A stretch of DNA of 51,740 nucleotides from Candidatus Bathyarchaeia archaeon (GCA_049517415.1 JBEKSC010000020.1:1-51740), one strand, 5' to 3'; shown: positions 5,472-31,690, counted from the first letter of the stretch. The notes: generated by a model from the sequence alone, not told the origin. Made by a program: numbers and translations.

Positions 5472-6828
5472 CCCTCACAACTTGCCTCATGAGGTTCAAA
5501 GCCGTCTCCCTCTCATCCCATGAGACAAAAACAAGGATGCTCGAGGCCAGCGTCAGCATTCCGAAGATGTTGATTTCCTTTTCGCGCAGGCGCTGTGATA
5601 TTCTACCTATGATCCCGGGAGTGTCCTCCAGGCCAACCCCTTTGACTTTCAAGAAAGCCAAGTTTCTTTGGACTGCCATCGCGAGGGTTTCGCTGCAACC
5701 AATGAGTAAGTCATGGACGTTTTTGAGTAGAAGAGTCTGAGGAGTCTGGGGGACATAGAAGATAACGGAATCAAAGTTGGCTGAAAGACCATCCAGCATT
5801 GAATGTTGTCTTATCTCACGCACTACGTTGGCTAATATTTCCGGGTTTTCGGAAATGGCTTTGCCAGTTATTGTGATCGCCATCGCAGGGGTACTGCTGG
5901 CAAAAGTAACCTCGATTTCGCCTGATATTCCGCCGGTGATGATTGTTCCGTCAGCTTCTAGGTCGTCTTTGTTGTGATTAATCACTTTGACTGGTATATC
6001 GGGATCTTTGTACTTCAGAGCCTTCCTGTGGATGAATTTGGTTCCTGAATCTGCTAACCCCACGAGGGTCCGAACTTCTATCCGAGCGAGTTTACGTGCG
6101 TTTGGAATGATTTTGGGGTCGGCTGTGAGGATTCCGTCAGCGTCAGTTACCAAGACGACCTCGTCAGCTCCGATAGCTTTCGCTATGATGAAAGCGGTTG
6201 TGTCGCTTCCGCCTCGCCCTATGGTGCTTATCTTGCCCCCAGTTGAGCGGCCTACGAATCCGGCGATCACTGGCACCGTCCCCAAGTCGAGTAATGGGAC
6301 GACGTGCTCACGGACTTTCTGCAAGCACAGCTCAAGTATTGGGTTCGCGTTGGAGAAGTCATCATCAGTAATGATCGGCCAATCGGCGTCGGTCGGATCG
6401 AAGTATCTCGCTTCGAGACCTTCGGATTTAAGCGCGGTGGCAAAGATTCGTACGCTCGTTCTTTCGCCCATCGCCAGGACGTCATCTAGATCCGTCTTGT
6501 CCGGCGCCTTAGTAGAGTCATGATTGACAAGGCCGATAAGCTGATCAGTCATCTTTCCGATAGCTGAAACTACTACAACGAGTCGAGTACCCTTCGCCGT
6601 CTCTTTGAATACTAACCGGGCTGCTTTCGCAATACGGTCTTTGTCCGCTAGGCTTGAACCGCCGAACTTGACAACAATTCTCCGTGTCTTTTGTTTAGAT
6701 GAAGCCCGAGGACTTGCGGCGATTACCGTTTGAAGTATTGTCGGCGCAGAAATCTTACTGGACAGAGTTTGGGGAGTGGTAGAGCCAGTGGCACTCACCG
6801 TAAATGTAGTCACCGAAAATGTAGCCAC
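5461..6828 (-). CDS. lysC: aspartate kinase with C-terminal ACT domain(s); N-terminus probably supplied by the overlapping leader ORF via +1 frameshift
   Basis: IVVKFGGSS, VVSA, GER, GRGGSDTTA and TDADGILTADP motifs. The conserved domain begins only at about 6678 (residue 51). The only upstream in-frame ATG/GTG/TTG codons are GTGs at 6828, 6813 and 6798, all inside the leader. Confidence 0.9.
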   Translation of the reverse strand: MATFSVTTFTVSATGSTTPQTLSSKISAPTILQTVIAASPRASSKQKTRRIVVKFGGSSLADKDRIAKAARLVFKETAKGTRLVVVVSAIGKMTDQLIGLVNHDSTKAPDKTDLDDVLAMGERTSVRIFATALKSEGLEARYFDPTDADWPIITDDDFSNANPILELCLQKVREHVVPLLDLGTVPVIAGFVGRSTGGKISTIGRGGSDTTAFIIAKAIGADEVVLVTDADGILTADPKIIPNARKLARIEVRTLVGLADSGTKFIHRKALKYKDPDIPVKVINHNKDDLEADGTIITGGISGEIEVTFASSTPAMAITITGKAISENPEILANVVREIRQHSMLDGLSANFDSVIFYVPQTPQTLLLKNVHDLLIGCSETLAMAVQRNLAFLKVKGVGLEDTPGIIGRISQRLREKEINIFGMLTLASSILVFVSWDERETALNLMRQVVRGEL

Positions 6829-6847
6829 CGCGCGTTGTACCAGCCAT
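6755..6847 (-). CDS. aromatic-rich leader peptide (uORF), 30 aa: MAGTTRGGYIFGDYIYGECHWLYHSPNSVQ
   Basis: Manual translation from ATG 6847 to TAA 6755. Six aromatic codons (Y9, F11, Y14, Y16, W21, Y23) in residues 9-23, directly ahead of an aromatic biosynthesis operon. lysC is in its +1 frame. Confidence 0.8.
   Translation of the reverse strand: MAGTTRGGYIFGDYIYGECHWLYHSPNSVQ
6785..6829 (-). repeat. three tandem 15-nt modules (GGTGGCTACATTTTC / GGTGACTACATTTAC / GGTGAGTGCCACTGG) ending in Phe, Tyr and Trp codons; candidate +1 frameshift cassettes
   Basis: Seen directly. Units 1 and 2 match at 13 of 15 nt, and all three begin with SD-like GGTG(G/A). Confidence 0.8.
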
Positions 6848-6895
6848 TTGCTTTATGCTACGCCCCTCTGTAGCCTAGCGCACCACTTGAGTGTG

Positions 6896-6903
6896 ACTTA
6901 AAA
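6896..6903 (-). promoter_or_regulatory. probable TATA box (TTTTAAGT) of the aromatic operon
   Basis: AT-rich box about 50 nt upstream of the leader ATG. The implied short 5'UTR contains GAGGGG. Confidence 0.55.
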
Positions 6904-7279
6904 GAATTCCTCAGACAATCAACATAATCATACTTCGTTCGCCGTACGGGACCGTCGGTCTCAAAGAAGGCATAATCCCGAACTGTCCTGAGTATGGATG
7001 CACCTCCACTACCTTGGCAGGCTCGCTACTTCAATGCGCGCACCGTCGCGAGACGCGCGTAAAGGCGGGTCGTCACCCTTAGCAGATCTGAAACAATAAA
7101 CGAGCAGATGATCCCTTACATTAACCGCCTCTCAGCCCTGCTCTTCGTAGTGGCAGGTGTCGCAAACCACCGAGCGAATAAGCAAGAATGAACGAAGGAA
7201 TGGCATGCGAAACAATAACCTCAAGAGTTCGTTTCAACGCTCCAACCCACTACTCAAGGAAAATGCTGGATGATTTCCC

Positions 7280-8257
7280 ATGCCTGAGGAAGCAATTACT
7301 ACAAAGGCTCTGACGAAAACGTTCGGTCATTTTACCGCGGTCGACGGTCTAAACGTAGGCGTCAATAAAGGAGAGCTATTTGGCCTGCTTGGGCCAAACG
7401 GCGCAGGAAAGACCACCATCGTCCGAATGCTTTGCACCCTAATCGAACCGACACGAGGCACCGCCAATGTTGTGGGCTATGATATTCGCGAGCAAGCGGC
7501 TGAGGTTAGGCGACAGATTGGAGTGGTTTCTGAGGGAGTCTCCCTCTACAAGGATCTGACGATCGAAGAGAACCTGAAGCTGCTCAGTACGCTCTACGAA
7601 ATCCCCCGCCCCAAGGCAGAGGCAAGAATACGAGAGTTGATGGATATGTTCGCTTTCAGGGAAAAAGCGAGCCGACTGGTAGGTGCCCTTTCATCCGGGT
7701 GGGCGAAGAAGGCTATGATATGCGCGGCTTTGCTTCACAGCCCACAGGTCCTATTCCTTGACGAAGTGACCTCCGGCCTCGACCCTCAATCAGCGATCGC
7801 ACTTCAGGATTTCACAAGGAAACAGTGCGACCTGGGAGTCACTGTAATCTGGACGACGCACTACATGGGTGAACCTGAGAAGATCTGCGACCGAGTTGGC
7901 ATTATGTTCGCGGGCAGATTAGTGCAGGTTGGGACCCCGAACGAATTGAAACATAGCGTAAGCGAACTCGCGATGGTAGAAGTTGAGACACCCGACTTGT
8001 CAAAAGTTCAGCTTGACAGGGTAAAACTCAAACTGAAGGCGATGAACCATGTTTGCAACGTGAAGTATGTGCATTCGAAGCTTCAAGTTAGCTGCGAGCG
8101 AACTGATACACTTGCCGAAGAAGTCGCGGCCGCTCTGTTTGATGTTGGGGCAAGGATTAGAGCGATTAGCACGAAAGATCCAACGCTTGAAGAGGCATTC
8201 ATCGCTCTAACGGGTGGCGAAGAGGAAATTGATCGATTCCTCGAAAGCTCGGGATAA
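7280..8257 (+). CDS. ABC-2 type exporter ATP-binding protein (DrrA/CcmA-like)
   Basis: Walker A GPNGAGKTT, degenerate signature LSSGW, Walker B LFLDEVTSGLDP, TTHY, and C-terminal TLEEAFIALTG. Confidence 0.92.
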   Translation: MPEEAITTKALTKTFGHFTAVDGLNVGVNKGELFGLLGPNGAGKTTIVRMLCTLIEPTRGTANVVGYDIREQAAEVRRQIGVVSEGVSLYKDLTIEENLKLLSTLYEIPRPKAEARIRELMDMFAFREKASRLVGALSSGWAKKAMICAALLHSPQVLFLDEVTSGLDPQSAIALQDFTRKQCDLGVTVIWTTHYMGEPEKICDRVGIMFAGRLVQVGTPNELKHSVSELAMVEVETPDLSKVQLDRVKLKLKAMNHVCNVKYVHSKLQVSCERTDTLAEEVAAALFDVGARIRAISTKDPTLEEAFIALTGGEEEIDRFLESSG

Positions 8258-8284
8258 AAGGCATAGAGTGTAGTCGATTTTCTG

Positions 8285-9451
8285 ATGTCGGTAGCAACAT
8301 TCCTCAGCGATTCCGTTGCCGTCGCCGAGAATGAATTTCGTCAGTTCCGCCGAAATCGAAGCGCTATACTCATCTCGCTCGTCGTACTGCCCTTATTCTT
8401 CACAATCTCACTCGGAGCCGGTCGAGGAGCAGCAGGGACCACTTTCTCTCCCACCGCAGACATCCCGATCGGATTCGTAGATAATGATAATTCGCTCGCC
8501 TCACTGCGCCTCTGGCAGGCATTAACCAGTTCACCCGACTTCCATAACTTGATACAGAGCTACAATGAGCAAGCCACCATAGCCGAGCTAGGCACCAAAC
8601 GCATCTACGCCGTAATCGTTGTCCCGAAAGATTTCCAAAATGATCTGGAGAACGGAAATCAGGCAAAACTGATACTTTACACTGACGACAGTGAACCCGG
8701 CGTCTCCGACCAAATCCAGAGCACACTCACGAGTTATGTGCAAAATTTCGACCCGAACGTCGAAGTCCAACCCCATTTGAGTCAGGTGCAACGACAATCT
8801 GTCGCGGGCGTCGGCATCGTTGCTAAAGGAGCCGTGTTCGCAGGCTTCAACATAGGCCTAACGGCCGTACTTGCAATTGTGCAAATCTTCGCCGCTTTCT
8901 ACGAAATAGCAGGCGGCATATCTCGTGAACGAGAGGACGGAACATATGCACGCCTACTGGTCTCTCCTATTCCGACCGGCTCAATAGTGCTCGGAAAAAC
9001 ACTCTTCGACATTCTCCTCTGCATTATTCGGACTTTCACAGTTCTAGGAATCTCGGTTTATGGTTATGGGGCAAGACCAAGTACGGATCTCTTTACGCTG
9101 CTCGCCTTATCTTTGATCGTAGCCCTGGTCACTATGGGTATTGGTTTTGTAGCGGCCTCGTTGAAGTTGGGTCAGAGGGCTGTGGTAATCATCGAATTCT
9201 TTCTAATATTGTTCCTATTCGCTTTCAGCGGCTTGATCATCGACATCAATCTCCTGGTCGGCATCACGCAGGTAATAGGCAACCTGCTACCATTTACCTA
9301 CGCGTTTGACGCCCTAAAGCGTACTATTCTACTCGGTAGGCCTTTGCTGTCCCTTACGTTCGACCTCGAATATTTGATCGGATCAATCCTTGCATCCTAC
9401 GGTATCGCTTTGGTTCTACTTCACGTTTCTCGGGAGAGGCTCATCACGTGA
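8285..9451 (+). CDS. ABC-2 type transporter permease
   Basis: N-terminal TM, extracytoplasmic loop, REREDGT..RLLVSP motif, several C-terminal TMs and LPFTYAFDA. Confidence 0.9.
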   Translation: MSVATFLSDSVAVAENEFRQFRRNRSAILISLVVLPLFFTISLGAGRGAAGTTFSPTADIPIGFVDNDNSLASLRLWQALTSSPDFHNLIQSYNEQATIAELGTKRIYAVIVVPKDFQNDLENGNQAKLILYTDDSEPGVSDQIQSTLTSYVQNFDPNVEVQPHLSQVQRQSVAGVGIVAKGAVFAGFNIGLTAVLAIVQIFAAFYEIAGGISREREDGTYARLLVSPIPTGSIVLGKTLFDILLCIIRTFTVLGISVYGYGARPSTDLFTLLALSLIVALVTMGIGFVAASLKLGQRAVVIIEFFLILFLFAFSGLIIDINLLVGITQVIGNLLPFTYAFDALKRTILLGRPLLSLTFDLEYLIGSILASYGIALVLLHVSRERLIT

Positions 9452-10575
9452 AGAGTTTCGTTCGTGATACAGTAGCCATTACAGGGAAAGAGTTGAAGCA
9501 GCTGCGCCGGGACCCTGTGTCCCTCATATTAACGATCATGTTCCCTATTCTTCTGATTGGTATTTTCATCGTCATTGTGTCCGCATTCAGCGCTACATCC
9601 CATAATGTGCCGGTGGTCGTTGCTGACTTGGATGGAACCCCTGCTTCGAACGCGCTAATCGATGAGTTGACCAGGTCACGGTTCATTCACGTAACCCAAC
9701 TCGTTCAAACTGAAGATCAAGCGTATCAGGCTGTTGCCAACGGGCAAGTTATTGGTGCTATAGTAATACCGCAGGGGTTCGGAGTCGCGCTGGCTTCGGG
9801 GAACGCGTTTGTCATCGTCTCTACTGATAATTCGAAGTTGACCTCTTCCGCGTTCGTTACTGCTGCGGTGAATCAAGGCGCCCAAGACCTTGTTAACCAA
9901 GCTAGCCTTGGTGAAGGGGTAAATTTCGCGTTGAAGTTAGCCCCGATCGAGGTAATTACAAGGCCCCTCTCGGGGCGGCCCCCGACCGGGGATCCAATTC
10001 TGCCGGGGTTTCTGGGCATGATTGCCATACTCGGTGGGTTTGATGACATCGTGAACGCGATTAGTCGAGAGCGGGAGCGCGGCACCTTCCCCCGCCTGAC
10101 TCTTTCTCCAGTGAGTTTGTTCGCTGTATATTCGGGTAAGATGTTTGCGACCGTTGTTCTAACGATCCTAAGGACGGCGCTGGTGCTTGTAATCTTCAGC
10201 CTTTACGGTCTTGTGATTCGCGGAAACCTCATACTAATCTTCCTAACGACCATCTTAATCGCCGTTTTCACCCTATCCTTAGGCCTGGCGATGTCAACGA
10301 GGATCCGCGGGTCAGCCACACTCACTGTTCTTGAGATAGCTATGACATTTCCGCTGTTCACATTGGCGGGGACATTTAATTCCCCGCTTTTGCTAGCGCC
10401 TGGGGGTAGGGCGATCGCGGATAGCCTTCCTTGGACGTATGGTAATGATGCGCTTAGACGTTTGATCTACTTGGGGGTTGGGCTGAATGCGGTTGCAGGC
10501 GACCTTCTCATCTTATTCATCAGCAGCCTCATACTGATGCCCATCGCGATCTTCCTATCGAAGCGCACTATGTAG
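9448..10575 (+). CDS. ABC-2 type transporter permease
   Basis: KELKQLRRDP, RERERGTF.RL.LSP and LPWTYGNDALR motifs; 4-nt overlap with the previous permease. Confidence 0.9.
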   Translation: MKSFVRDTVAITGKELKQLRRDPVSLILTIMFPILLIGIFIVIVSAFSATSHNVPVVVADLDGTPASNALIDELTRSRFIHVTQLVQTEDQAYQAVANGQVIGAIVIPQGFGVALASGNAFVIVSTDNSKLTSSAFVTAAVNQGAQDLVNQASLGEGVNFALKLAPIEVITRPLSGRPPTGDPILPGFLGMIAILGGFDDIVNAISRERERGTFPRLTLSPVSLFAVYSGKMFATVVLTILRTALVLVIFSLYGLVIRGNLILIFLTTILIAVFTLSLGLAMSTRIRGSATLTVLEIAMTFPLFTLAGTFNSPLLLAPGGRAIADSLPWTYGNDALRRLIYLGVGLNAVAGDLLILFISSLILMPIAIFLSKRTM

Positions 10576-10577
10576 CG

Positions 10578-13500
10578 TTACCGACGTCTTCTACGCTCTA
10601 ACAATAATGCTGTAGCTGCGCCTACTATTAGGATGGTTAGGGGAATCGCTGGGAGTTCAGGTATTGGGATTTGGCTTTCTTCCAGAATGTAGTTGAGTGC
10701 ATGATTCTCTTCTCCTTGGTCGACGTTGAGTGTGAACGTGATTTGTTGGTGGCCTTCGTTTTGGTTCCATTCGGTAATTGTGGCATGGTAGGTTCCTGGG
10801 TTTAGGTAGCCATCAAACCATCCGTCCCACGTATACCAGTAATACTGGTACCCAGAAGTGTCCACAAGTTCCACTGTTACCCAACTCATCGTTCTGGTTT
10901 GATCGTCCCAATTCACTCCAAGTATAGTTCCTTGAATGTACCCTCGTCTGTCAACTTCGAACTCGGCTGAAGCTTCGCCGCTGAGAGGAGCGTTTAGGAT
11001 GAGCTCAAACCCTGAACCGTATTCTAGTTGCGCGTAGGGTCCAAGATGGTTGTATGGGAAGAAGTAGGGCGATTCGCCTTGAAGGAGGGCTGGGGGGGGT
11101 GGGTACGCGACCGTGGGCTGGTACCAGTTCACGAAGTCAACCATCACCGTCCAGGATCCGGAGTAGCTGCCTTCGAATGTGCCGCTACCCCATATTCCGT
11201 GGAGAAGTCCGCTGGGGAAGAGGGTGGCGCTCTGGACGCGTGATGTTGCGCTGCTCGGTTCCGTGTAGCTGAAGAGTCCAGCAAGATCCCTGTAGGTTAG
11301 CAGCGTGGTTCCCGCGGGGAGCGCTTGGTTAATGAGTTTCTTTCCGTTCGCGATGAAGCCCACGTTTGATGACGGGAGCTGGATGCCGGCGTCTGATGTG
11401 AATAGGGTTGTTGCGGCTACAAGCCTATCTTGATCGTCGAATACGCGAAACCTAACCGACATATTGTAGGCCGTCCCTGAGATAATCTTCTCAGTCTCGA
11501 AGAGAACACTCACTGTCACGTTTACCCCGACGATGAGGTTGAGGTTTATGTCAGCCATTTGGCCGAGCCATGGGACGGACACGTAAACGTTGCCAAGGTC
11601 GCCAAGCGTGACCACGTTCTCCTGCACATACCCATACGTCCAACCGTTCAGCGCATATGTTCCCGGATAAATTGCCAAGTTCGATCTGAATGAGGGGAGT
11701 CTGTAGTAGGTGAAATTGAACAGGAAACCTTCATGGATGTATTCCTGGAGGAAATCAAAGGTCGTCATGGAATTAGTGGGATCTGTGGAGGCTACGCTGG
11801 GAATGTCAGGTCCGAGGCTGTCGACGAATACGCTTCCGTTTGTCATGAGGTAGCTGGAACCTAGCCCGTACGAAGTTACCCAACCTGGCCACGGGAGGGT
11901 TGTGAACATTGAGTTCTGTGTCGGTACCGACCATCGCTCATTCTTAGCGTTCCAGAAGTTGATTACGTCTATGAAGTTCCGTGATGAAATGTCGTACACT
12001 AGAACATCCACGGATGTGTCGTTCCACACCCAGTTCCGTTCGACTCGCGGCCTCTCCCAGTCGGTAGATGTCACGGACGCGTTGATACTGCCGCCTCGGT
12101 ACATGTGGGTGCTTGCTTCCAGGAGGCAGCTGCCAACCGAGATGCTTACCGATAGTGGTTGGTCCAATTCATCGAATGACGTTGCCGGTGGAAGGGCCTG
12201 AATGTAGCCCCTCATGAATACGCGGACCGTGTAGGTATCGGTTGGGAGCCCATAGTCGTATGCCCCCCTGTACCTGGCAAGGGAATACTTGACCAGTGCT
12301 CTCGGGTCGAAGGGGGATACGTGGAGTGGATCCCCCGCCATTCCCAAGCCGTTGAGCAGTATAGACATCTCAGACTTTGATGAAGAGACTTGTGTGAAGT
12401 TGAATGCTGCCAGCGAGTTATCTCGCGCGAACGCCTCCGCTATCATATACCGTGCTGGGTCAGGGCCTCCGATCGGCTCCTCCATAAGCGTAGCTGGGTT
12501 GTCATGGAAGTGGACTGTAACGTTCATACCGCATGATTGTACGAGGTCGATTGGTATGAACGTGTTATAGGGGCCGATGTCTGGGACTGTGAACGAGTAA
12601 TCCACGAATGTCCCCCCATCAGGGGTAGTCTGGACATACCCATTCAGGAAGACTCGAATGTAGTATGTTCCGGGGCTTAGGCTGTCCGTCCATGTGGCGA
12701 AGACTTCAGGAACCATTCCGGAGAATCTCGTTGGCACACCATAGACACCCTCGGATCCAAATTGGAAAGTGAACTCCGACGCTGATGAACCTAGGCCAGT
12801 GTTCGGATCGAGGTTGCCACGGGGGTCGACCCACCAGACTTGAGCGGGTCCCACTCCGTTAAACAACCCAAACGGATCTTTGGGTTGGGTTGGGTTCGTG
12901 TACGTATAGTAGCCTATCGGGCCTTCCCAAGGGAATGCGACCTCTTTCGGGCCTGCCACCCCTGAAATTAACCCGCTGAAACCCATCTTTGAGAAGTATG
13001 TGTTTCCATTCACATATGATGTATAAGGCGCATCGGTGAGGTTGATGGGAGATTCAGTTTCGATGCTTGGAACGTCATAGGATTCACTATTGTAGATGAT
13101 CATTGAGATTGGGCGTTGGGCAGGCCACTGGCCTTCGCCGAACCCTAGCTTGGAGAATATTGTACCCCGGAGTTGGAAGCCAACGTTAAGGTACCCGTCA
13201 AACTGAAGCGACTGCCCCCGGGTCACCCTAACATTGCTAGCAATTTTCTGTTCGGGAAGCCCCGCTGCTGACGCGTAGATATCGTAGACCCCTGGGGCGA
13301 CTCCTTCTATCTCATAGTGGCCCTGAGCGGTTGCGTTGAAGTATCCTCTTGCCTCAACCGCGTGGCCCGTCGGTTCGTTTGTCAGTGGATTGTTTGCTAC
13401 GCCAACCGCTCTGACCATTCCTGGAAGGTTAATAGGTTTTCCATAGAGGGTGCTGTTCAGACCTCCATACCTAAGCGTGCCCGAAATTATGGCTGGGTCC

Positions 13501-14333
13501 ACCTCGCCCTTAACGAGGAGTACTGGCCAATTTTCCATCGGCACCGTGCCCGCGATCAAATTAGCGGACGCAGCACTGTGCACGGGGTAAGAGTCGTTGA
13601 GGAACATTTTGAAGAAATATCTTCCAGCGGTGAAAGGTGCTTTCATCTGGTTGATTCGAATGTAATACCAGTTGTCGAAGTTCTTGTTAAAGTTGAACGT
13701 GATCCCTGATGGTGGTGCTTGGATGTTTATGATCCATGAGCCGGGTTCGAATGGATCGTTCATATCCGCTCGGGTCACGAATATGCTGCCATAATCGCTG
13801 GTGATGGTGGTGACGATGTTAGTGTTATCGCCTTGATCCCAGTTTATTCCGGCGTCAGGTTCGAAGCCGTCTTGGATTAGTTTGCCTGTTGCATCGAAGA
13901 CAGGCGCGGGGATGTAGATTGCTAGGCTCGTGTAGTTGAATCGGCTTGGGCTAGGGAAAGTATTCGGGTTTGAGAAGTTCAGGGCGAAGATCAAATCACC
14001 CACGCTGTCGTGGTCGGCGGTTGAGGTGAGAATGGCACCTTCGGGGCTGTAGGAGTCGCCTGCCTCCTGGAGTGGTTGTTGATTGGTGAAGGGTGACTGG
14101 TAACCGGGCGGGTTGGAGGCTACCCCCGAGTATGTTTCTAAGCCGCTTCCTGGCCAGACGTATCCTAAGGGGCCGGGGACATGATTGCCGCCAGGGATTG
14201 TGAGTTCATTATCGTTTATTCGGTATGGGGATGTTCCGCTTAAGTCTCCTAGTGTTGTGTGAGCAGAAACGGGAGCAGCGAATGAGAGTGCGAGGGCCAT
14301 CAATAGTAGGAGAATGGCCCACCTGCGAACCAA
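10578..14333 (-). CDS. large (1251 aa) secreted cell-surface protein with beta-sandwich (carboxypeptidase regulatory-like) repeats and a C-terminal sorting signal
   Basis: Signal peptide MVRRWAILLLLMALALSFAAPVSA; recurrent (L/V)xPG(T/V)Y motifs; many N-x-S/T sequons; C-terminus IPIPELP followed by a TM helix and RRRRR. Confidence 0.85.
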   Translation of the reverse strand: MVRRWAILLLLMALALSFAAPVSAHTTLGDLSGTSPYRINDNELTIPGGNHVPGPLGYVWPGSGLETYSGVASNPPGYQSPFTNQQPLQEAGDSYSPEGAILTSTADHDSVGDLIFALNFSNPNTFPSPSRFNYTSLAIYIPAPVFDATGKLIQDGFEPDAGINWDQGDNTNIVTTITSDYGSIFVTRADMNDPFEPGSWIINIQAPPSGITFNFNKNFDNWYYIRINQMKAPFTAGRYFFKMFLNDSYPVHSAASANLIAGTVPMENWPVLLVKGEVDPAIISGTLRYGGLNSTLYGKPINLPGMVRAVGVANNPLTNEPTGHAVEARGYFNATAQGHYEIEGVAPGVYDIYASAAGLPEQKIASNVRVTRGQSLQFDGYLNVGFQLRGTIFSKLGFGEGQWPAQRPISMIIYNSESYDVPSIETESPINLTDAPYTSYVNGNTYFSKMGFSGLISGVAGPKEVAFPWEGPIGYYTYTNPTQPKDPFGLFNGVGPAQVWWVDPRGNLDPNTGLGSSASEFTFQFGSEGVYGVPTRFSGMVPEVFATWTDSLSPGTYYIRVFLNGYVQTTPDGGTFVDYSFTVPDIGPYNTFIPIDLVQSCGMNVTVHFHDNPATLMEEPIGGPDPARYMIAEAFARDNSLAAFNFTQVSSSKSEMSILLNGLGMAGDPLHVSPFDPRALVKYSLARYRGAYDYGLPTDTYTVRVFMRGYIQALPPATSFDELDQPLSVSISVGSCLLEASTHMYRGGSINASVTSTDWERPRVERNWVWNDTSVDVLVYDISSRNFIDVINFWNAKNERWSVPTQNSMFTTLPWPGWVTSYGLGSSYLMTNGSVFVDSLGPDIPSVASTDPTNSMTTFDFLQEYIHEGFLFNFTYYRLPSFRSNLAIYPGTYALNGWTYGYVQENVVTLGDLGNVYVSVPWLGQMADINLNLIVGVNVTVSVLFETEKIISGTAYNMSVRFRVFDDQDRLVAATTLFTSDAGIQLPSSNVGFIANGKKLINQALPAGTTLLTYRDLAGLFSYTEPSSATSRVQSATLFPSGLLHGIWGSGTFEGSYSGSWTVMVDFVNWYQPTVAYPPPPALLQGESPYFFPYNHLGPYAQLEYGSGFELILNAPLSGEASAEFEVDRRGYIQGTILGVNWDDQTRTMSWVTVELVDTSGYQYYWYTWDGWFDGYLNPGTYHATITEWNQNEGHQQITFTLNVDQGEENHALNYILEESQIPIPELPAIPLTILIVGAATALLLERRRRR

Positions 14334-14378
14334 GTATCACTTGCTCCAAACCAACTGGATCTCTGCACTGTGAACTTT

Positions 14379-15671
14379 CTATTTCCTGCCCGTCTGGGCG
14401 TTCTGCGCAGTCGCCTTAGCCTTTCGTCGCCTCATATACAGGAAGCCGCCCCCACCACCCACGACTATGATTGCCACAACGATCAAAGCTACAGGTACAG
14501 CCGGCTGCTCAACTGTGAAGGTGATGGAGTATGAGTAGTCATCGTATAGTTGAACTGTGTCCTGAGTCCAGTCGAATCGCAGGCTGTAAGTGTACTGGGC
14601 TGGTTGGGCTTTGCTGTCAACATCGACCGTGAAGAAGGCCACTTTAGTTTCATTCGCTAACATTGTGCCGAGAAAATCCGTTAATGTGCCAGTGAAAAAG
14701 TTCCCGACAAGCAGTTCCACCCTTACCGAGTCGGCTTCTACGGACCCAGCGTTTCTAATGACGACGCTTATGACATCTCCTGAATCGCCAACATGGACCG
14801 TCGAAGGTGTTACGCTGATGATGTCAAATCTGACCTTCTCGCTAACGTAGAGTGGAAGTTCTCCAAACGGTATCAGTTGGCTTCCGGTGACTTCCCCGAG
14901 TATGACGGAATATTGCCCGAAGGTCGCGTTTTCAGCTACGTCGACAATGAAGTTAGCAGTTGTTGTCTGTCCGGCTGGTATGTTTCCTACGAAGATCTGG
15001 TCGGAGCCGCTGGACGAAGCGCTGAAGGGGGGTTGTAGAACGAGTTGAAGTTGGACATTTTTCGCTGTTCCTTGGCCTGAATTTGCTATTGTGACCTGCA
15101 CGCCAACCTGCTTGCTGTCAGGATAAATCTTAGTCGGATTCGTGACCACGCCTTGAACGTGAAGCTCCCCATGCCAGATGGGAACGTCCACGGGCACCGT
15201 TGTATCAATCTGTTGTAGCTCTCTCGCTGACTGGTAAGATAATTCTAAGGAGTACCTGTAGATGCCCTCCTTAGCCCTCGCGTCGATGCTGAGAGTATAA
15301 GTGAGTACGTAGCCCTGGCCCGCTTGAATGTCACCGGCCTGCTGCGAGACATCGGTCGCGTTATACTTTACTCCATTAACGAAGTAAGAGTAGATAAGCG
15401 GTGGCCCGACGTACAGTGTCGCGTTAACACTCCTTGCAACATCGTCACCCACATTAGTGATCAATATGGAAAGCTGAAGATTAACATCTCCCGGATGTGC
15501 CGTATCCGGGGTAACGGCGCTCGCTCCCCAATATACGTTGGTAACAACAACGTTTGCCACGCCAATCGCAGCCGCGGGTTGCGTCTCAGTACGAATAAAG
15601 AACGCAAGCAATACTACAAGCAAGAGCATCGTTGTCCTTCTGAACTGCATCCTTCCCACCGAAACTTTCAC
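14379..15671 (-). CDS. COG1361/CARDB-like S-layer-domain membrane-anchored protein
   Basis: Signal peptide; three Ig-like repeats with I-x-N-x-G-x-x-x-A-x-x-V motifs (ITNVGDDVARSV, IANSGQGTAKNV, IRNAGSVEADSV); C-terminal TM followed by RRRK. Confidence 0.82.
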   Translation of the reverse strand: MKVSVGRMQFRRTTMLLLVVLLAFFIRTETQPAAAIGVANVVVTNVYWGASAVTPDTAHPGDVNLQLSILITNVGDDVARSVNATLYVGPPLIYSYFVNGVKYNATDVSQQAGDIQAGQGYVLTYTLSIDARAKEGIYRYSLELSYQSARELQQIDTTVPVDVPIWHGELHVQGVVTNPTKIYPDSKQVGVQVTIANSGQGTAKNVQLQLVLQPPFSASSSGSDQIFVGNIPAGQTTTANFIVDVAENATFGQYSVILGEVTGSQLIPFGELPLYVSEKVRFDIISVTPSTVHVGDSGDVISVVIRNAGSVEADSVRVELLVGNFFTGTLTDFLGTMLANETKVAFFTVDVDSKAQPAQYTYSLRFDWTQDTVQLYDDYSYSITFTVEQPAVPVALIVVAIIVVGGGGGFLYMRRRKAKATAQNAQTGRK

Positions 15672-20230: not shown

Positions 20231-20286
20231 CGGAAGCTCCTTGGAATGAGCGACCTCGACTGAGAAATGGTTAGCGGTTTGTTCTG

Positions 20287-22708: not shown

Positions 22709-22869
22709 ACCTTGACCTCTCTACTATTCTTTAACCGATCTCGTGCGTGACCTCATTTGTGTTCATACGTTTAGTATAATGTTGCCTCAGGACTGGCGGG
22801 GAAAGTATGGGAATTGAATTGAACTGTGTAATAGCTATGATTTTTCAGTTGCAAAGAATCATCGCTCTA

Positions 22870-23493
22870 TTACGATGATCGGATCCTAAGTGAGCGAGAG
22901 ATATGAGTCCACAATTCCGCGTGGACAGTTTTAGGATCTTGTTCGGCGTCAATTACTTTCCAGGCGTATCGTTTGGCAAGTCGGAGGTATGCGCCTCTCA
23001 CTTTTCGCAAATATTCGCGATCGGCCTCATGAACGTCCCTCCGATTTCTCTTCCGCCGGAATGATGCTTGAGGGGCGATATCGAGAACGACCACAACGCT
23101 CGGTTCTGGTAAGCCTTTCTCCAACGATTTTAGCCAATCGAGTGGTAGACCGTGAGCCAACCCATAGGCCAGATTTGATGGGCTGTAACGGTTTACAATT
23201 ACGTTATGACCTTTCGCAATCTCCTGGTTCAGTTCTTGGAATTGTTCCCATTTATTTGCTGCATACAGGAGGTGAACGGCATGATAGTCAAGCTGATTTT
23301 TTCCAGCCAAGTAAGCCCTCAACTGTTTTCCGATTGGTGTTGTATAGTCAGGGAAGTTCCAAACTGATGCCCGATACCCTCGATTGGCAAATTCTCTGGC
23401 CAGAAGATTTGATTGCGTTCTCTTGCCAGACTGGTCTATTCCCTCAATTACGATTAGTAGGCCACGAGTTCTTTGCAACGGTTCTACGTCCAA
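22870..23493 (-). CDS. tmk: thymidylate kinase
   Basis: IVIEGIDQSGKRTQ P-loop, LLYAANKWE, NRYSPSNLAY and LPEP motifs. Confidence 0.9.
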   Translation of the reverse strand: MDVEPLQRTRGLLIVIEGIDQSGKRTQSNLLAREFANRGYRASVWNFPDYTTPIGKQLRAYLAGKNQLDYHAVHLLYAANKWEQFQELNQEIAKGHNVIVNRYSPSNLAYGLAHGLPLDWLKSLEKGLPEPSVVVVLDIAPQASFRRKRNRRDVHEADREYLRKVRGAYLRLAKRYAWKVIDAEQDPKTVHAELWTHISRSLRIRSS

Positions 23494-23622
23494 TACTTTT
23501 CATGATTCAAAGGAAATAAGCGTGAACTAACAGGGACCCACTTTCGGCGTTTTTTCGCCTTCCTGTGGATCCTGTAGATGTCCAGCCAGATGTTTTCTGA
23601 AGCTGTTTCACGCCAAACTACC

Positions 23623-24612
23623 TCAGAACGACCTTGAAATAAGAAAGTCGGCAATCGATGATAAGTTGTTTCTTGCCTCTGACGGGGGGAGCCTGTTCAA
23701 CGCTTTCATGGCGTTTTCCAAGAAGGCTTCAGCCTGCGTTTTAGCGTACTCGGTTGAACCATATTTCTCGTATAAGTCGATTACCTTTCGTATCTCGTTC
23801 TTCTTGATATTCTTCTTCCCCAGTAGTCGGCCAAAGACCTTCTTGTCCTGAGGACTTGCGGCCTTTAGCAAATGAGCTGCCAAGACGGTTTTCTTTCCTT
23901 CACGAATATCGCCCCCAATCTCCTTTCCGTACTCTTTCACGTCACCCATAACATTGAGTAAATCGTCAACTATTTGGAAGGTTATGCCAACTGTTTCGCC
24001 AAACTCGCCAAGTATTTTGAGTTGCTCCTCCGAACCTCCTCCTGCGATCGCACCACCTTCAGTTGACAATCCCGTGAGTGCCCCTGTCTTATACCTGAGA
24101 AGTCGGATCACGTCCTCTTCAGTGAAATTCTTCCTTTCCCACATGCTGAATTCGAAAGCTTGCCCCCAAGTGATTTCGTATGCGCGGCCCGCAATTTTCG
24201 CTACAAGCCTTTGGCAGAGTTCTGCGGGAATCTTGCTCGAGTTTGCGATTTCGAATACTTTGATGAGCATCGCGTCTCCCGCATTGATCGCGATGGGGAC
24301 ACCGTAGATTTTGTGAATGCATGGTTTTCCGCGCCGAAGTTCGCTTTGGTCCTCGATATCATCGTGAACCAAGGTCATGTTGTGAAGAAGCTCGATTGCT
24401 GCAGCTGCAGCGACTGCATCTTCTTTTTTGCCGCCGACACATTCACAGGCCAAGAATGTTAGCGCTGGCCGGATTCGTTTCCCGCCTCTATCAAGTAGGT
24501 CCCACACTGAAGCGTAAAACTCAAGTGGTTCACCACCTCGCGGCAAGTGCTTTTCCAGTTCAACTTCAACGTCGGCCTTGTACTGGTCGAGAATTTCCAG
24601 GGCCGGTTTCAT
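23623..24612 (-). CDS. polyprenyl (geranylgeranyl) diphosphate synthase, IdsA type
   Basis: GGKRIRP, first aspartate-rich motif LVHDDIED..ELRRG, GQ, KTG, and second motif FQIVDD..GDIREGKKT. Confidence 0.93.
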   Translation of the reverse strand: MKPALEILDQYKADVEVELEKHLPRGGEPLEFYASVWDLLDRGGKRIRPALTFLACECVGGKKEDAVAAAAAIELLHNMTLVHDDIEDQSELRRGKPCIHKIYGVPIAINAGDAMLIKVFEIANSSKIPAELCQRLVAKIAGRAYEITWGQAFEFSMWERKNFTEEDVIRLLRYKTGALTGLSTEGGAIAGGGSEEQLKILGEFGETVGITFQIVDDLLNVMGDVKEYGKEIGGDIREGKKTVLAAHLLKAASPQDKKVFGRLLGKKNIKKNEIRKVIDLYEKYGSTEYAKTQAEAFLENAMKALNRLPPSEARNNLSSIADFLISRSF

Positions 24613-24701
24613 GGTCAGGTTGAATATGGACTGTGGTTCTTCAAGTCATCGGCGACAGCTTTACGTTCGCTTAGAGAAGCAATTTTGCTATGAGGTGCGG
24701 G

Positions 24702-26963: not shown

Positions 26964-27089
26964 AGTGCGCCCCTCCTAGTTGGATTGGTATGAAAACGGA
27001 CCAGCGGCGTATAAGTCACGGGGGTTACGCCCGTGTTCGATTGCCGAGTTCCTTGGGATGGACTGTTGAGCGAAAAGAGTGATTGCTGC

Positions 27090-27974
27090 CTATGGCTGGT
27101 TTGCGCCGCAGCTACCGCAGAACTTCGCAGACGCTGGAAGCTTCGCCCCACAGTTCATACAGAACTTTTGGCCCTCCGCAACGGGAGTCGGCGGCGGGGT
27201 TGGTGCAGCTGCGCCACAGGTTGGGCAAAACTTATGCTGCGGCTGAAGTGCAGTTCCACACGAAGAGCAAACTAGACTGCTTGCTGCACTCGGTTGGACG
27301 CGTAGCTCGGGCGAGGCTCCCTCATTATACAGCAAACCAAGTGACCTGAAGCTGAAGACGCTTAAGATGGGCGAGATTATTGCGGAAATTACCCAACCTA
27401 CGAATGGTATCCGCCAAGCCGCACCGCCTATTATCATGATTATAATTAGTACTACGATCCAGGTGATGTATTTCCCCCAACCTATTCCGCGAATAATTCT
27501 GAGTATTTCGCCGAACGCGAAAGCTTTCCCGAATTTCCCAGTCTTCAACATATGAGCGATGCCGGCAGCGAGCAGGACCAAAAGAATGATTCCTAGGAGA
27601 ATTCCAACCAGCAACACAACCACACCAGTTCCCCCAAGCATCACGCTCGGGGCTGCGAATCCGCCCTGCAAAGACAGCATGCCCGCAAATAACGAGAATG
27701 CGCCCGCCCCGATCAAGATTGCCGGAATCAACATGTAGATTGCCCATGCAACGGCGACTTTGAAGCCGTCGACGAACATCTCGCCGTACTTCTCGAGTTT
27801 CGGCGGTGTATCGGTGCCTGGAGATTCCCTCAGCACTCGAGCGGCGTATCCGATCACAATAAAGTCCACGATGGGTATAATACCGAGCACTATGAGGATT
27901 ATTAGCCTCCCGCCATCGCCGAGCAATCTCTTCGCAAATTCGAAACTGTTGCTGAGATTTTCACTAAGCTTCAA
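27090..27974 (-). CDS. DUF4013-like membrane protein with C-terminal double zinc ribbon
   Basis: GY..RVLR, F.DGFK and AFAFGEI motifs with several TMs; C-terminal CSSC/FCPTCG and FCMNCG/FCGSCG. Confidence 0.75.
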   Translation of the reverse strand: MKLSENLSNSFEFAKRLLGDGGRLIILIVLGIIPIVDFIVIGYAARVLRESPGTDTPPKLEKYGEMFVDGFKVAVAWAIYMLIPAILIGAGAFSLFAGMLSLQGGFAAPSVMLGGTGVVVLLVGILLGIILLVLLAAGIAHMLKTGKFGKAFAFGEILRIIRGIGWGKYITWIVVLIIIMIIGGAAWRIPFVGWVISAIISPILSVFSFRSLGLLYNEGASPELRVQPSAASSLVCSSCGTALQPQHKFCPTCGAAAPTPPPTPVAEGQKFCMNCGAKLPASAKFCGSCGANQP

Positions 27975-28123
27975 TTTGACTGCCTTCTAGTGAATTAATA
28001 TCGGTTATCTCCAATACCCATTACTGGACGCTAACGCATAGCCAACGTGCTCATAGCATATAAAATGGTACGAAGGTAAGTTAGGATGTACTCCATCCGA
28101 ACACAATGCTCCCTACTCAGCGG

Positions 28124-28483
28124 TTACTCGGAACCCCGGCTTCTTAGCTGTTTCAGCTTCTCTAGCGCGCTCAGCCAACTGGCCAAGGCGTTGCCATATA
28201 CGATCAATTTCTCGGGGTCCGTTTCATTCCTCATCGCCATATTGATTTCTCGAATTTTGGAAAACAAAATCATCTCGGAGTCCTCGAGCACCTTATCAGC
28301 CATGAACCGTGTCTCTTGCTCAGCGGATTGAATGATCACTACCGGTTTGTCGCATTTTGCGCAGAACGTTTCCTTGCCTCTTCGGAAGAGCGGGGTTCCG
28401 CACTCAGGGCAGGTCTCCGATAACATCGTAGCCCCGGATTTGAGAAGTTCAGCCATTTTCTTAACTTCAAAGGCCAAAGACAT
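28124..28483 (-). CDS. UPF0148 / autoantigen p27 (SSSCA1)-like zinc-finger protein
   Basis: MAELLKSGATMLSETCPECGTPLF...FCAKC signature. Start is ATG 28483 or 28456. Confidence 0.85.
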   Translation of the reverse strand: MSLAFEVKKMAELLKSGATMLSETCPECGTPLFRRGKETFCAKCDKPVVIIQSAEQETRFMADKVLEDSEMILFSKIREINMAMRNETDPEKLIVYGNALASWLSALEKLKQLRSRGSE

Positions 28484-28689
28484 CGACCATGCAAGAGTAT
28501 GGCAAACGACTATTACACCTTGTTGGCGGCTGAGCCGTTCCATATGCGAATTGATAAAGGCTTTAGATATTGCCTTTGAAGGAATCTGAGTGAAGAGTCG
28601 CGATCAGACGCTATCGACTAAGCAACTAAAGGGGCCTACCGGTAGACTGTGAGCTAACTTAGATTACGATGCCTGAATTTCCATCAGGT

Positions 28690-29229
28690 TCACGGATGCC
28701 ATTCCACTTCTGGCTTCTTCTCTCGATGGTTGACCGCACGGGCGAGTATGAACAGCAGATCGGATAATCTGTTAATATAAGGTAACATTAGGTCGCTGAC
28801 CTTCTCAGCCTTGCTTAATGTGACTATACTTCTTTCGGCACGTCTCGCAACAGTTCTTGAGAAGTGTAGGATTGAGCCAGCCGGGCCACCGCCTGGGAGA
28901 ATGAAGGCTTTCAATGGGGGAAGTTCGTCTTGTAATCGGTCGATTATTCTCTCGAGTTCGGCTATTCTCTCTTTCGTGATTCGCGGAACCCTGTCGTGGC
29001 TCTCTTTTGAGGCGAGGTCCGCACCGGCCACAAACAGATCCTGTTGAAGGCCTTCTAAGATCGTATCAAGCTCCCTATCATTCAAGAAGGATCGAACCAA
29101 ACCGAGCACGGAATTGAGCTCATCGACGTTACCATAGGCTTCTACGCGGAGCGAATCCTTCGGAACCCGCCCCCCTCCTACGAGGCCTGTCTCACCTTTG
29201 TCTCCTGTTCGAGTGTATATCCTCGCCAA
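28690..29229 (-). CDS. pduO: PduO-type ATP:cob(I)alamin adenosyltransferase
   Basis: IYTRTGDKGETGL, EAYGNVDELNS, FILPGG, RTVARRAER and NRLSDLLF motifs. Start moved to TTG 29229. Confidence 0.9.
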   Translation of the reverse strand: MARIYTRTGDKGETGLVGGGRVPKDSLRVEAYGNVDELNSVLGLVRSFLNDRELDTILEGLQQDLFVAGADLASKESHDRVPRITKERIAELERIIDRLQDELPPLKAFILPGGGPAGSILHFSRTVARRAERSIVTLSKAEKVSDLMLPYINRLSDLLFILARAVNHREKKPEVEWHP

Positions 29230-29303
29230 TTCCGAATACACGCAGTAAATGAAGCAAGACAACAATTTAGAGGCGTTGGTATGTAATTACTGCGGCGAAG
29301 GGA

Positions 29304-30179
29304 TTGAGGATCGGCGTACTCCTAGACGAGCCGACGATCATACCAGGATTTGACTACACATTCTACGAGGTGAAACCATCAAGCGGGAGAATCAACCAGC
29401 CGCTTCCGCAAGCGTGGAATGTCGTAAACTGTTTCGCCGATAACACGATCACTCAAACCAAACCTGAACTTGTCGCAACTTCGAAAGGAGAGCGAGCAAT
29501 GAGGGGGACGCCTAAGCGTTTCCTCTGGGATTGGATTTGCCCTAGCCGGACTGAATACCGCGACTACTGCTTGAAGACCATTCAAGATGTTGCGCGGCAC
29601 AACGATGTTGCGGGGATTCGCTTGGATAGCGTGTGTTTTCCACGAGAAGGCTACTGTGATTGCTCGATTTGCAGGGAGCTAAGCGCGAAAAGCGGGATGG
29701 ATTTCTTTGAATGGCGGGCTGATCAAATCGAATCCTTCGTTCGAACGGTGCGCGAGAGCATAACGTGCGGATTAGGCCTAACATTGGAACCGGACCCTTG
29801 CTACGGAAAGGAAAGATTCGGTTTGGACTTAGAAAGAGTAGCTGAGTATGTTGACTTCATTTCCACACCACTCTACATGGACTACTCGATTGTCTATTGG
29901 CTGGACATAATTGCGAATTGTTTCCGCCGAAAAATATCGAAGCCGTATTTCATCGAACTCTACGCGGGACATCCGAGAGCTCCCACGAAGCATCTTATGT
30001 CTGCGTTAGCTGTGGCCTCGGGATACGCCGACTGCATCGTTCTTTCAACCTATGAGACTAAGATCGCAAGGAGTCTGCAAGAGGAATTGGTTCGAGAAGA
30101 GCAAGTGACGGCCTTTTTCAAAGAGCGTGAATGCACCGAAATGATAGAGCTTCTACACCGATGGCGGAAGATTGTATGA
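29304..30179 (+). CDS. hypothetical protein, glycoside-hydrolase-like TIM barrel (GHL/DUF187-like) with CxCxxC
   Basis: WICPS...YR, GIRLD, YCDCSIC, EWRADQI and VDFISTPLY resemble GHL-type barrels; no signal peptide. Confidence 0.55.
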   Translation: MRIGVLLDEPTIIPGFDYTFYEVKPSSGRINQPLPQAWNVVNCFADNTITQTKPELVATSKGERAMRGTPKRFLWDWICPSRTEYRDYCLKTIQDVARHNDVAGIRLDSVCFPREGYCDCSICRELSAKSGMDFFEWRADQIESFVRTVRESITCGLGLTLEPDPCYGKERFGLDLERVAEYVDFISTPLYMDYSIVYWLDIIANCFRRKISKPYFIELYAGHPRAPTKHLMSALAVASGYADCIVLSTYETKIARSLQEELVREEQVTAFFKERECTEMIELLHRWRKIV

Positions 30180-30226
30180 AACTACAGGCACCGAACCCTT
30201 CGACGTGCATTTTTGTACGCTGTAGC

Positions 30227-30234
30227 TTTAAATA
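30227..30234 (+). promoter_or_regulatory. TATA box (TTTAAATA) of the trp operon
   Basis: Near-consensus archaeal TATA box, implying a TSS near 30255-30259. Confidence 0.7.
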
Positions 30235-30253
30235 AAGCATTGATGTCAATTGC

Positions 30254-31690
30254 GTGGCACCGCGATATTCGGGGAAGAAAAAATGGGGTATAGCCTTTGG
30301 GCGGCCTGCCCAGCAACTAAAGACGCAAACAGAACATAGGCTAAAGCTCCAGAAATTCCGGTACTCAACAAACCCCGTACAAACATTTCTTGCACTTAGT
30401 CATCAGAGCGAATACTGTTACCTCCTCGAATCTGCTGAGGGCCCAAGGAAACTCGCGCAATATTCTTTCATTGGCTTCTCCCCTGAAAAAATCGTTGAGG
30501 TGAAGGATGGCCGCTACACCGAAACGATCCCCGGAGATGCATCCACCACCATTCAGATAGACGACCCTTATCTCCCGCTGCGGAAGACGCTGGCCGAAAA
30601 CTTCACAACGTATCATGGGTTCCGGTTCGTAGGAGGCTTGGTAGGCTACTTCTCCTACGATGCAATTCGCTATCTGGAATCGATACCTACTCAAGCTCGC
30701 GATGATCTGAAACTTCCAGATTTCGAATTCGGAGTCTACGATGATGGGATCGTATTCGACCACCTGAACGGCCAGGCTTACTATTACTGGTACAACAATG
30801 ACAGGTTGAAAGAGATTGAACGACTTCTCCACCAAAGGATAACGCCAACAAATCTAGCCTCTGACCGACTGAGAGTAAACCTAAGGCAACAAGAATTCGA
30901 ATCAAAGGTGGACGAAGCGAAGAAGTACATTAGAGCTGGAGACATATTCCAAGTCGTACTTTCAAAACGCCTCGAGTTCGCTTTCAAAGGCGACCTACTC
31001 AATTTCTACAAGGCATTACGCGAGATCAACCCCTCCCCATACATGTACTTCCTCAAAATGAAAGACCGAGCATTAGTCGGCTCAAGCCCTGAGATGCTTG
31101 GAAGAGTCGACAAAGGCCGCGCGGAAACATTTCCAATAGCAGGAACGCGCCCCGTGGGAGCAAACAGCGAAGAAGACAGTCGATTGGCGGACGAGCTATT
31201 GAGTGACCCAAAGGAACGAGCTGAGCACATTATGCTGATAGACCTTGCCAGGAACGACCTTGGAAAAGTTTGCCAGTTCGGGACGGTTGAAGTTCCAGAG
31301 TTCATGGTGGTCCAAAGGTACAGCCACGTTCAACACATAGTTTCGCGGGTTTCAGGTCAACTTCAACCGGGTTGCGACTCGCTCGACACATTCAAAGGAA
31401 TCTTCCCGGCCGGAACAGTGTCTGGAGCGCCGAAAAAAAGAGCGATGGAAATCATAGAGGAACTGGAACCGACTAGGAGAGGACCGTATGCTGGGGCAGC
31501 AGGTTACTTCTCGTACAACGGCAACGCTGATTTTGCAATAACGATACGGACGCTAGTCGCCAATGGAAATATGGCCTACATACAAGCCGGGGCAGGGATA
31601 GTCGCGGATTCACAACCTACACGAGAATGGTTTGAAACAGAACAAAAGGCCGAAGCCCTCGTTCACGCCTTGAAAGCCGGTGGGATATGA
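30254..31690 (+). CDS. trpE: anthranilate synthase component I; start uncertain (GTG 30254, or entry by +1 frameshift from the leader)
   Basis: [62 protein letters not shown] and AGAGIVADS motifs. Confidence 0.93.
30283..30339 (+). CDS. trp leader peptide (uORF), 18 aa: [18 protein letters not shown], with a CTT-TGG-G candidate +1 shift site
   Basis: ATG 30283 preceded by GGGG at 30271-30274; TAG at 30337-30339; single Trp codon at 30298-30300 directly after CTT. trpE is in its +1 frame. Confidence 0.75.
   Translation: MGYSLWAACPATKDANRT

Follow-up and report, generated by a model that had tools for sequence, protein, structure and literature searches.

The stretch of DNA considered here (the window) is contig C20 of a 2.65-Mb Candidatus Bathyarchaeia archaeon genome (GCA_049517415.1 JBEKSC010000020.1:1-51740; 51,740 nucleotides, nt), and it carries two operons for the synthesis of aromatic amino acids. 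The plus-strand operon has the gene order trpEGDCFBA, and the closest named relatives of its trpE are from Bathyarchaeia. The minus-strand operon begins with the aspartate kinase gene ask. The archaeal route to dehydroquinate (DHQ) draws its aspartate semialdehyde from aspartate kinase and the product of asd, so that it is fair to call this operon the common aromatic pathway. A short leader open reading frame (ORF) precedes the first gene of each operon, the enzyme frame is in the +1 relation to the leader, and a TATA-like box lies about 50 nt upstream (Table 1). An earlier note on this DNA had described these leaders and had placed in them four 15-nt modules of one shared cassette design, at 6829, 6814 and 6799 on the minus strand and at 30286 on the plus strand, all of which is borne out. 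Each module ends with a codon for an amino acid made by the pathway, referred to below as the sensor codon. The feature is real and widely conserved, and it is most likely an amino-acid-sensing +1 frameshift.

Table 1. Features of the two aromatic operons of the window (positions counted from its first letter).
Feature	Position	Strand	Remark
Rest of aro operon: asd, ADH synthase, DHQ synthase II, aroD, aroE, aroK	170..5471	-	NCBIfam
Aspartate kinase (ask) reading frame	5461..6819	-	First gene of aro operon; +1 to leader
aro leader ORF, 30 codons, three 15-nt modules	6755..6847	-	Design kept in 18/18 genus loci
Trp module GGT GAG TGC CAC TGG of aro leader	6785..6799	-	Sensor codon conserved, P codon not slippery
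Tyr module GGT GAC TAC ATT TAC	6800..6814	-	Predicted +1 slip AUU -> UUU
Phe module GGT GGC TAC ATT TTC	6815..6829	-	Predicted +1 slip AUU -> UUU
TATA-like box of ask-aro operon	6897..6903	-	TTTTAAG, 50 nt 5' of leader ATG; same position in genus relatives
Imperfect palindrome	30205..30218	+	Candidate transcription-factor site, directly 5' of trp TATA box
TATA-like box of trp operon, TTTAAATA	30227..30234	+	Ends ~50 nt 5' of leader ATG
In-frame GTG	30254..30256	+	Taken by ORF callers as trpE start; not conserved
trp leader ORF, 18 codons	30283..30339	+	Purine-rich Shine-Dalgarno (SD)-like stretch upstream
Trp cassette GGG TAT AGC CTT TGG	30286..30300	+	SD-like element 30285-30289; predicted shift site CUU-UGG 30295-30300
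Anthranilate synthase I (trpE) frame	30296..31690	+	+1 to leader; predicted entry at UUU
trpG, trpD, trpC, trpF, trpB, trpA	31680..36770	+	NCBIfam

The trp cassette can be followed through the orthologs of trpE. A protein search of 41 genomes gave 30 loci chosen by protein similarity, from which two at contig ends (L027, L028) and two paralogs without a cassette (L029, L030) were left out. All of the remaining 26 loci, which come from nine genera, have the arrangement start-RGG-NRT-NNN-NTT-TGG with trpE in the +1 frame. The codon expected to occupy the ribosomal P site may be CTT, TTT, ATT or GTT, and the UGG behind it is invariant (26/26). The leaders range from 10 to 51 codons in these 26 loci and from 6 to 51 over all relatives viewed, while the distance from start to Trp codon is fixed, and since the length is variable the leader stop is not a re-initiation signal. 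Sequence 3' of the Trp codon is not conserved in the trp leaders. The leader of the window holds one Trp codon, and there are no runs of cognate codons but one per module. In 11 of the 26 loci the enzyme frame has no ATG, GTG or TTG before the conserved domain, and in nine a stop closes it at the leader start. The Phe codon that the main (enzyme) frame has at the site is UUU in 26/26 loci and never UUC, although the trpE genes prefer UUC overall (206 TTT vs 370 TTC; log10 P -4.4 with one locus per genus, these being kin and not independent).

Other samples of trpE give the same picture. Named trpE records number 38 after removal of three incomplete ones from 41, and 36 of them have the cassette, 35 in the +1 relation; these include records from Nitrososphaerales and Thaumarchaeota. 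Sites picked by motif likeness in other orders proved to be trpE in 18 of 20 cases, and these 18, which are not independent of the pattern, are included among the 44 trpE sites referred to below. The same Trp expression has only two matches in 889,772 nt of cimA, leuA, ileS and valS loci. A main ORF in the -1 frame behind a slippery heptamer, as in the archaeal gene fucA1, was not found, the relation being +1 in 26/26 and 35/36 cases. Conservation across dozens of assemblies excludes sequencing error, and the Trp cassette at trpE is not chance; the earlier note had argued both points. The trpE genes of genomes G339 and G323 have ordinary starts. The GTG at 30254 was considered as the true trpE start and rejected because it is not conserved, being present only in the window genome and its nearest relative among the 26 loci.

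The P codon covaries with the first base of the sensor codon. It is NTT at 26/26 Trp sites, and at the 21 Ile sites before the citramalate synthase gene cimA it is NAA in 15 and TTT in six. At all 26 trpE and all 21 cimA sites it is able to re-pair in the +1 frame, which is not so for the Trp module of the aro leader. The first two triplets of the cassette, together with the first base of the E-site codon, are complementary to the 16S tail of the window genome, GGATCACCTCC, a comparison that the earlier note had called for. What is conserved there is the bases RGK and not, as that note had it, a Gly codon four codons before the sensor, since AGG stands at 21 of the 44 trpE sites. The distance from the GGAGG-equivalent to the P codon is 6 nt at 39/44 trpE sites and 7 nt at 19/21 cimA sites, about 2 nt shorter than at the ATG starts of the window genome, where SD spacing has its mode at 8-9 nt; a +1 slip would therefore relax the cassette spacing.

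The Trp cassette is also found before other Trp genes. When 401 genomes of the phylum were searched with two patterns, 33 and 92 matches resulted, whereas the same patterns reversed had 6 and 17 (totals for the latter counted by hand from tables). Among 30 loci returned for the first pattern, 22 are trpE and six trpS-like; among 30 returned for the second, six are trpE, 17 trpB2-like and two trpS-like. Unrelated genes make up seven of these 60 loci. The cassette thus heads trpB2 (17 loci) and the tryptophanyl-tRNA synthetase gene trpS (eight loci) in other families, two trpB2 and three trpS being confirmed by NCBIfam and the rest assigned by N-terminal likeness. Several Trp leaders end directly after UGG, and with the +1-frame stops at hisG described below this brackets the site. 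In one family, 54 of 56 genomes have one Trp-cassette match (control 1/56); all seven sites checked there are trpE, and amoA is present in both genomes tested. No other single argument for the sensor is as strong as this presence of a Trp codon in front of three Trp genes that are unrelated to one another.

In the aro leader, modules are present in 23 of 29 orthologous ask loci. A Tyr module with NUU-UAY occurs in 18/18 loci of the genus, its sensor varying between TAC and TAT, and a Phe module in 16/18, with an NUU P codon in 11 of those 16. A third module with UGG, 15 nt further on, is kept in 15/18. In three loci of other families ask has Phe/Tyr modules and the +1 ORF stops 2 nt before the ask start. 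The other six of the 29 loci have Phe/Tyr-rich attenuator-like leaders with hairpins, a normal start and no cassette, which is independent support that this position senses Phe and Tyr. Such leader peptides were seen at L052, L054, L056, L057, L058 and L059, from four other families. The ask frame of the window carries an unconserved linker of about 40 codons, and its in-frame GTGs at 6828, 6813 and 6798 are either by-products of the GGTG modules or rival starts.

Sensor codons for other amino acids occur as well. When the genome was scanned with a pattern taken only from the trp and aro modules, cimA, the head of the ilv/leu operon, was matched, with an Ile codon. The cassette is present in 21/21 cimA loci (ATT in 11, ATC in 10), and outside the class it is found at cimA in G320 and not in G329. 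An Ile cassette also stands before a leuA/cimA-family synthase of another subtype (L410, G118). The spacer between cimA and ilvB (L118 ~2900-3030, G000 C10) holds an Ile/Leu/Val-rich leader ORF and a GC-rich hairpin, followed by ilvB; this leader is seen in all nine genus loci long enough to view and looks like a classical archaeal attenuator. At ileS an Ile cassette, first noticed by eye, is present in 14/20 loci of the family and in 0/10 from other families, and in 13 of the 14 cassettes a +1 ORF of 26-40 codons ends within -4 to +9 nt of the ileS start. An Asn cassette (AAC or AAT) is found at asnS in 4/4 genus genomes and not in G023 (4/5), and pheS of the window genome has a Phe cassette. 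The window genome carries six cognate sites: trpE (Trp), ask (Phe), cimA (Ile), ileS (Ile), pheS (Phe) and asnS (Asn).

His cassettes (NUU-CAY) were found by eye in a survey of 23 genomes with HisG, in which some operon heads lay outside the loci viewed. They precede hisZ in G031, G069 and G037 and hisG in G006, G010 and G161; the one at hisG of G017 is less reliable. In G006, G010 and G161 a +1-frame stop lies directly 5' of the UUC entry codon of hisG, and in G006 and G010 the frame opens only at that UUC, with no start codon before the conserved N-terminus. The hisG leader of G161 (L168) has two successive His modules, each of which would need its own +1 shift, and the ORF behind the second has a stop that overlaps the hisG start. 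A guessed pattern with NCC before CAY was rejected, since its 10 matches in 88 genomes were no more than background and none of them had a long +1 ORF. The window genome (G000), with a stated completeness of 100%, has no HisG match and only hisD- and hisC-like matches, and most of the genus may be unable to make histidine. At hisS of G000 (L464 ~180-220) the leader frame has GTT-CAC (His) and the +1 frame is the hisS N-terminus; there are no SD-like triplets, and an in-frame TTG is present.

For three further genes the picture is less regular. At valS (L462, L468-L487) a six-codon leader ending in CAA-GTY (Val) occurs in 17/20 genus loci, with no internal SD-like triplets and with inconsistent coupling. 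At leuA the start is ordinary and in-frame in 28/30 loci. The other two (L241, L245, of G037 and G032) have a Leu cassette and also a possible in-frame start, which is suggestive only; it is possible that the usual N-terminus was moved out of frame there to give a Leu cassette, a snapshot of cassette origin. In G320 (L381:232-430) Tyr and Phe modules with a coupled +1 ORF stand before a small membrane protein and a sodium/solute symporter, which in this single case is a candidate aromatic amino-acid transporter.

Genome scans delimit how far the design extends. A first loose scan of a single genome gave 52 matches against 23 for its control, mostly noise, and yielded cimA. A strict scan that allowed coupling gave 21 matches against 14 controls and contained the six cognate amino-acid genes of the window genome. 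Since its pattern was built from known modules, only pheS and asnS (and cimA in the first scan) are out-of-sample. One of the 14 control matches lies, by position, at pheA, with a non-cognate Thr codon. No cassette was seen at the argG, lysW/lysX, hom, metE and homocitrate-synthase heads viewed from five genomes; at pheA, tyrA, argG, metE, trpS, trpB2, tyrS, metS, aspS, cysS or leuS of the window genome; or at the ADH-synthase and leuA-type heads of two amoA-positive genomes. Twenty further pattern matches in G314, G320, G324 and G329 comprise one trpE, one ask, one transporter and otherwise unrelated or unassigned genes; G314 also contains a long tandem array with a 54-nt period (C1:61938-66166).

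These surveys bear on how broadly the cassette should be viewed. The earlier note had expected further cassettes in this genome, and they occur at cimA, ileS, pheS and asnS; it had also proposed that the sensor codon tracks the pathway product across genomes, and the codon does follow the product across unrelated genes, with synonymous change only. Of the biosynthetic heads that the note wished to see scanned, his and ilv/leu (cimA) have cassettes, but pheA, tyrA and the arg, thr and met heads viewed do not; nor do the lys heads. The design is not tied to aromatic codons starting with U, as had been supposed, given the Ile, Asn and His sensors. Instead of the proposed genome-wide regulon, "shared sensor design" is the better description, since each of the sites, six in this genome, has its own amino acid to sense; many biosynthetic heads lack a cassette.

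From the anatomy, conservation, codon identity, covariation and frame relations observed, we infer leader translation, a slip, its dependence on starvation and pairing with rRNA. Ribosomes would start on the short leader ORF and, usually at codon 6, would meet an A-site codon for the pathway's own amino acid behind a slippery P-site codon, which is NUU before sensors starting with U or C and NAA or UUU before those starting with A. The two triplets before the shift site would pair with the 16S tail. With ample charged tRNA the ribosome would keep its frame and end at the leader stop. When the aminoacyl-tRNA is scarce, the ribosome would pause, the peptidyl-tRNA would re-pair one base on, and translation would continue in the +1 frame. 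In a fusion type this frame would be the enzyme itself (trpE, ask, cimA, hisG/hisZ, trpB2, trpS), and in a coupled type it would be a short ORF that ends on the start codon of the enzyme (ileS, pheS, some ask and asnS). Where modules follow one another in one frame, the result would be OR logic, as for Phe or Tyr at the common aromatic pathway. In many archaea, then, shortage of the pathway's amino acid probably turns the gene on by a one-base slip. In our judgment it is highly likely that starvation induces a +1 frameshift by which ribosomes reach the enzyme frame or are coupled to its start.

Several observations weigh against this view. A main-frame start exists somewhere in 15/26 trpE loci, at unconserved positions; the window itself has main-frame GTGs at 30254, 6828, 6813 and 6798; and a GTG stands at +4 in every GGT-type cassette viewed before trpE or trpB2. 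Among the 38 named trpE records, two start with an ordinary ATG and one is in the +2 relation. About 10% of coding controls (0.108, 0.088) reach the anti-SD duplex energies of the cassettes. Later loose scans of a single genome did not discriminate, being no better than the +2 control (29 vs 35; 82 vs 99), and the other 15 of the 21 strict-scan matches were not identified as amino-acid genes. The genomes are kin, and counts overstate independence. Three loci (L039, L049, L429) are broken downstream, and in genome G018 a stop replaces the Trp codon. Within the aro leader, five of the 16 Phe modules lack a slippery P codon, and the P codon of the Trp module is TAC, CAC, TGC, AAC or TGG and never NTT (0/15). 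That the common pathway senses Phe, Tyr and Trp, as the earlier note proposed, is supported for the Phe and Tyr modules, while the Trp module, though its codon is kept, is doubtful as a shift site. It and the five Phe modules without NUU may be weak sites or may shift without re-pairing; as speculation, a ribosome stalled at the aro Trp codon could keep a following ribosome positioned on the Phe module 30 nt upstream. Finally, parts of PMC3082878 describe pheL as a case in which frameshifting in a biosynthetic leader can be incidental.

The main-frame GTGs would also be expected if the leader were a stalling sensor in which the ribosome only controls access, with the enzyme starting in its own frame at a GTG, a TTG or a near-cognate AUN in or near the cassette. 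Besides the GTGs at +4 and in each of the three aro modules, 42/44 trpE sites have ATN as the main-frame codon at -8, and attenuator-like leaders occur in the same order. We nevertheless consider this explanation improbable, as the candidate starts shift from site to site (+4, +7, +10, upstream) or are missing, as in the 11 trpE loci noted above, many cimA sites have a -8 codon other than ATN, and hisG of G006 and G010 has the start-less frame already described. A ribosome stalled at codon 6 would presumably cover such starts, which is the wrong sign for induction, and the NUU/NAA covariation and the coupled ileS +1 ORFs would be left unexplained.

Anatomy alone cannot show regulation, and the A-site codons are not rare as a class. 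A +1 shift at a set, low ratio that limits expression without responding to amino-acid supply would be in keeping with this, and set-ratio frameshifting is described as common in sections of PMC5009743. Such a device offers no reason for an A-site codon that matches the product at trpE, trpB2, trpS, ask, cimA, ileS, pheS, asnS and the his genes, and we regard it as more improbable still.

In the trpE cassette it is mostly the main-frame third positions that vary (0.78 vs 1.78 bits), as it would if the frame were entered at or next to the leader start, by a start-associated slip or by RGG -> GGN at codon 2, and the downstream bases were kept for the protein or for rRNA pairing. Start-associated frameshifting under starvation is described for mammalian cells in parts of a preprint (bioRxiv 2023.02.15.528768). 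At three his loci, however, the stretch from codon 2 to the P codon is interrupted by a +1-frame stop, the modules of ask and ileS are placed 2-16 codons away from the start, the site has UUU and never UUC, and the coupled +1 ORFs encode no part of an enzyme, which makes entry near the start very improbable. A base missing from the RNA itself, through polymerase slippage, editing or a tiny intron and not through the ribosome, has next to no likelihood, for the U or A runs at the sites are only 3-5 nt, with 2 U at His sites, and both the fixed codon distance from the leader start and the cognate codon would go unexplained.

The starvation-induced +1 shift has its nearest counterpart in bacterial prfB (RF2). 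As described in passages of PMC5009743, prfB has a short zero-frame leader, a CUU-type P codon that shifts to UUU, a slow A site, an internal SD-like stimulator closer than at initiation (3 nt, against 6-7 nt at the cassettes) and a functional product from the +1 frame. Unlike prfB, where the A site holds a stop and the release factor regulates itself, the cassette has a sense codon for the pathway product; its signal would be aminoacyl-tRNA supply, and it is archaeal, with many genes and exchangeable codons. The ribosome-mediated attenuators trpL, pheL, hisL and ilvL likewise have a leader ORF with cognate codons before the first gene and sense charged tRNA. The cassette differs from them in having one cognate codon per module, a fixed slippery context, an enzyme often without its own start, and no evident terminator or anti-terminator requirement; a downstream gene with its own start and ribosome-binding site, as at an attenuator, is found only in the coupled type and not in the fusion type. 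The device would work like prfB, but it is neither a member of the prfB family nor an attenuator.

Other recoding systems share single properties with it. In ketolide-induced ermCL, as proposed for the coupled type, ribosomes that shift in the leader go on translating in the new frame and the downstream gene is thereby switched on (PMC5009743); ermCL differs in being drug-induced, bacterial and limited to a single gene, with no cognate codon. Hungry-codon +1 shifts (Ty1, starvation) combine an empty A site with near-cognate re-pairing, according to parts of PMC2377451, although they are known as an error or as a set-ratio device of mobile elements, and a conserved switch for making the limiting amino acid is not among their known roles. 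The same parts of that source name a hungry A codon, a slippery P codon and an SD-like stimulator as the three known promoters of +1 shifts, which counts in favor of a starvation-dependent shift at the cassettes. In archaea, fucA1 of Saccharolobus solfataricus is also a cellular gene that needs frameshifting, but the shift is -1, with a heptamer and a stem-loop. A passage of a 2021 review calls it the only reported archaeal case (PMC8211752).

No description of the cassette system was found in the literature searched, most subscription journals lying outside that search. The novelty that the earlier note had left to such a check is tempered by Haloferax leuA2 (HVO_1510), which has an ATG that is conserved and out of frame and for which the authors, in passages of PMC8305020, speculate on slippage and translation only without leucine. 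That case is a single gene in another phylum, a speculation, and likened here by description and not by sequence; the passages on leuA2 describe no cassette, shift site or wider set.

The remainder of the window adds little that bears on the leaders. An Rfam scan gave no match at the gathering score, and thus no T-box or other curated riboregulator, and a tRNA scan found no tRNA. The two leaders fold at -22 and -27 kcal/mol, values that stand without a shuffle or covariation comparison. A palindrome similar to that beside the trp TATA box is present in 20/26 trpE loci and is a possible repressor or activator site; the one in the window may resemble the TRP boxes of TrpY. Three large ORFs, 10578-15671 (-), 29304-30179 (+) and 46761-48899 (+), have no NCBIfam family; the first two have weak surface-protein domains and the third has none.

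It seems likely that the cassette is a third general amino-acid sensor beside attenuators and T-boxes, namely a portable 15-nt recoding element in which the A-site codon sets the signal. It would span Bathyarchaeia, ammonia-oxidizing archaea and other Thermoproteota, as well as genes for biosynthesis, tRNA synthetases and transport. In series it would give OR logic (Phe or Tyr) or two successive shifts (His then His, in G161), and in evolution it would swap with classical leader peptides at the same gene. Ammonia-oxidizing archaea include cultured strains. The regulators TrpY and Tar control the same archaeal trp and aro operons, but at the DNA level. Neither is present in many Crenarchaeota, which may rely on a third mechanism, according to sections of a 2019 paper (PMC6737238). 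If the cassette works as proposed, it would provide a large archaeal group with a translation-level sensor of amino-acid supply where that third mechanism is suspected. Set against the part of the 2021 review cited above (PMC8211752), it would be the first case of +1 programmed frameshifting in cellular genes of archaea, and among the few cases in which regulatory frameshifting is used at many genes. The starts of trpE, cimA, ask, hisG/hisZ, trpB2 and trpS would be mis-called in many genomes, and the cassettes would argue that elongating archaeal ribosomes pair their 16S tail with mRNA.

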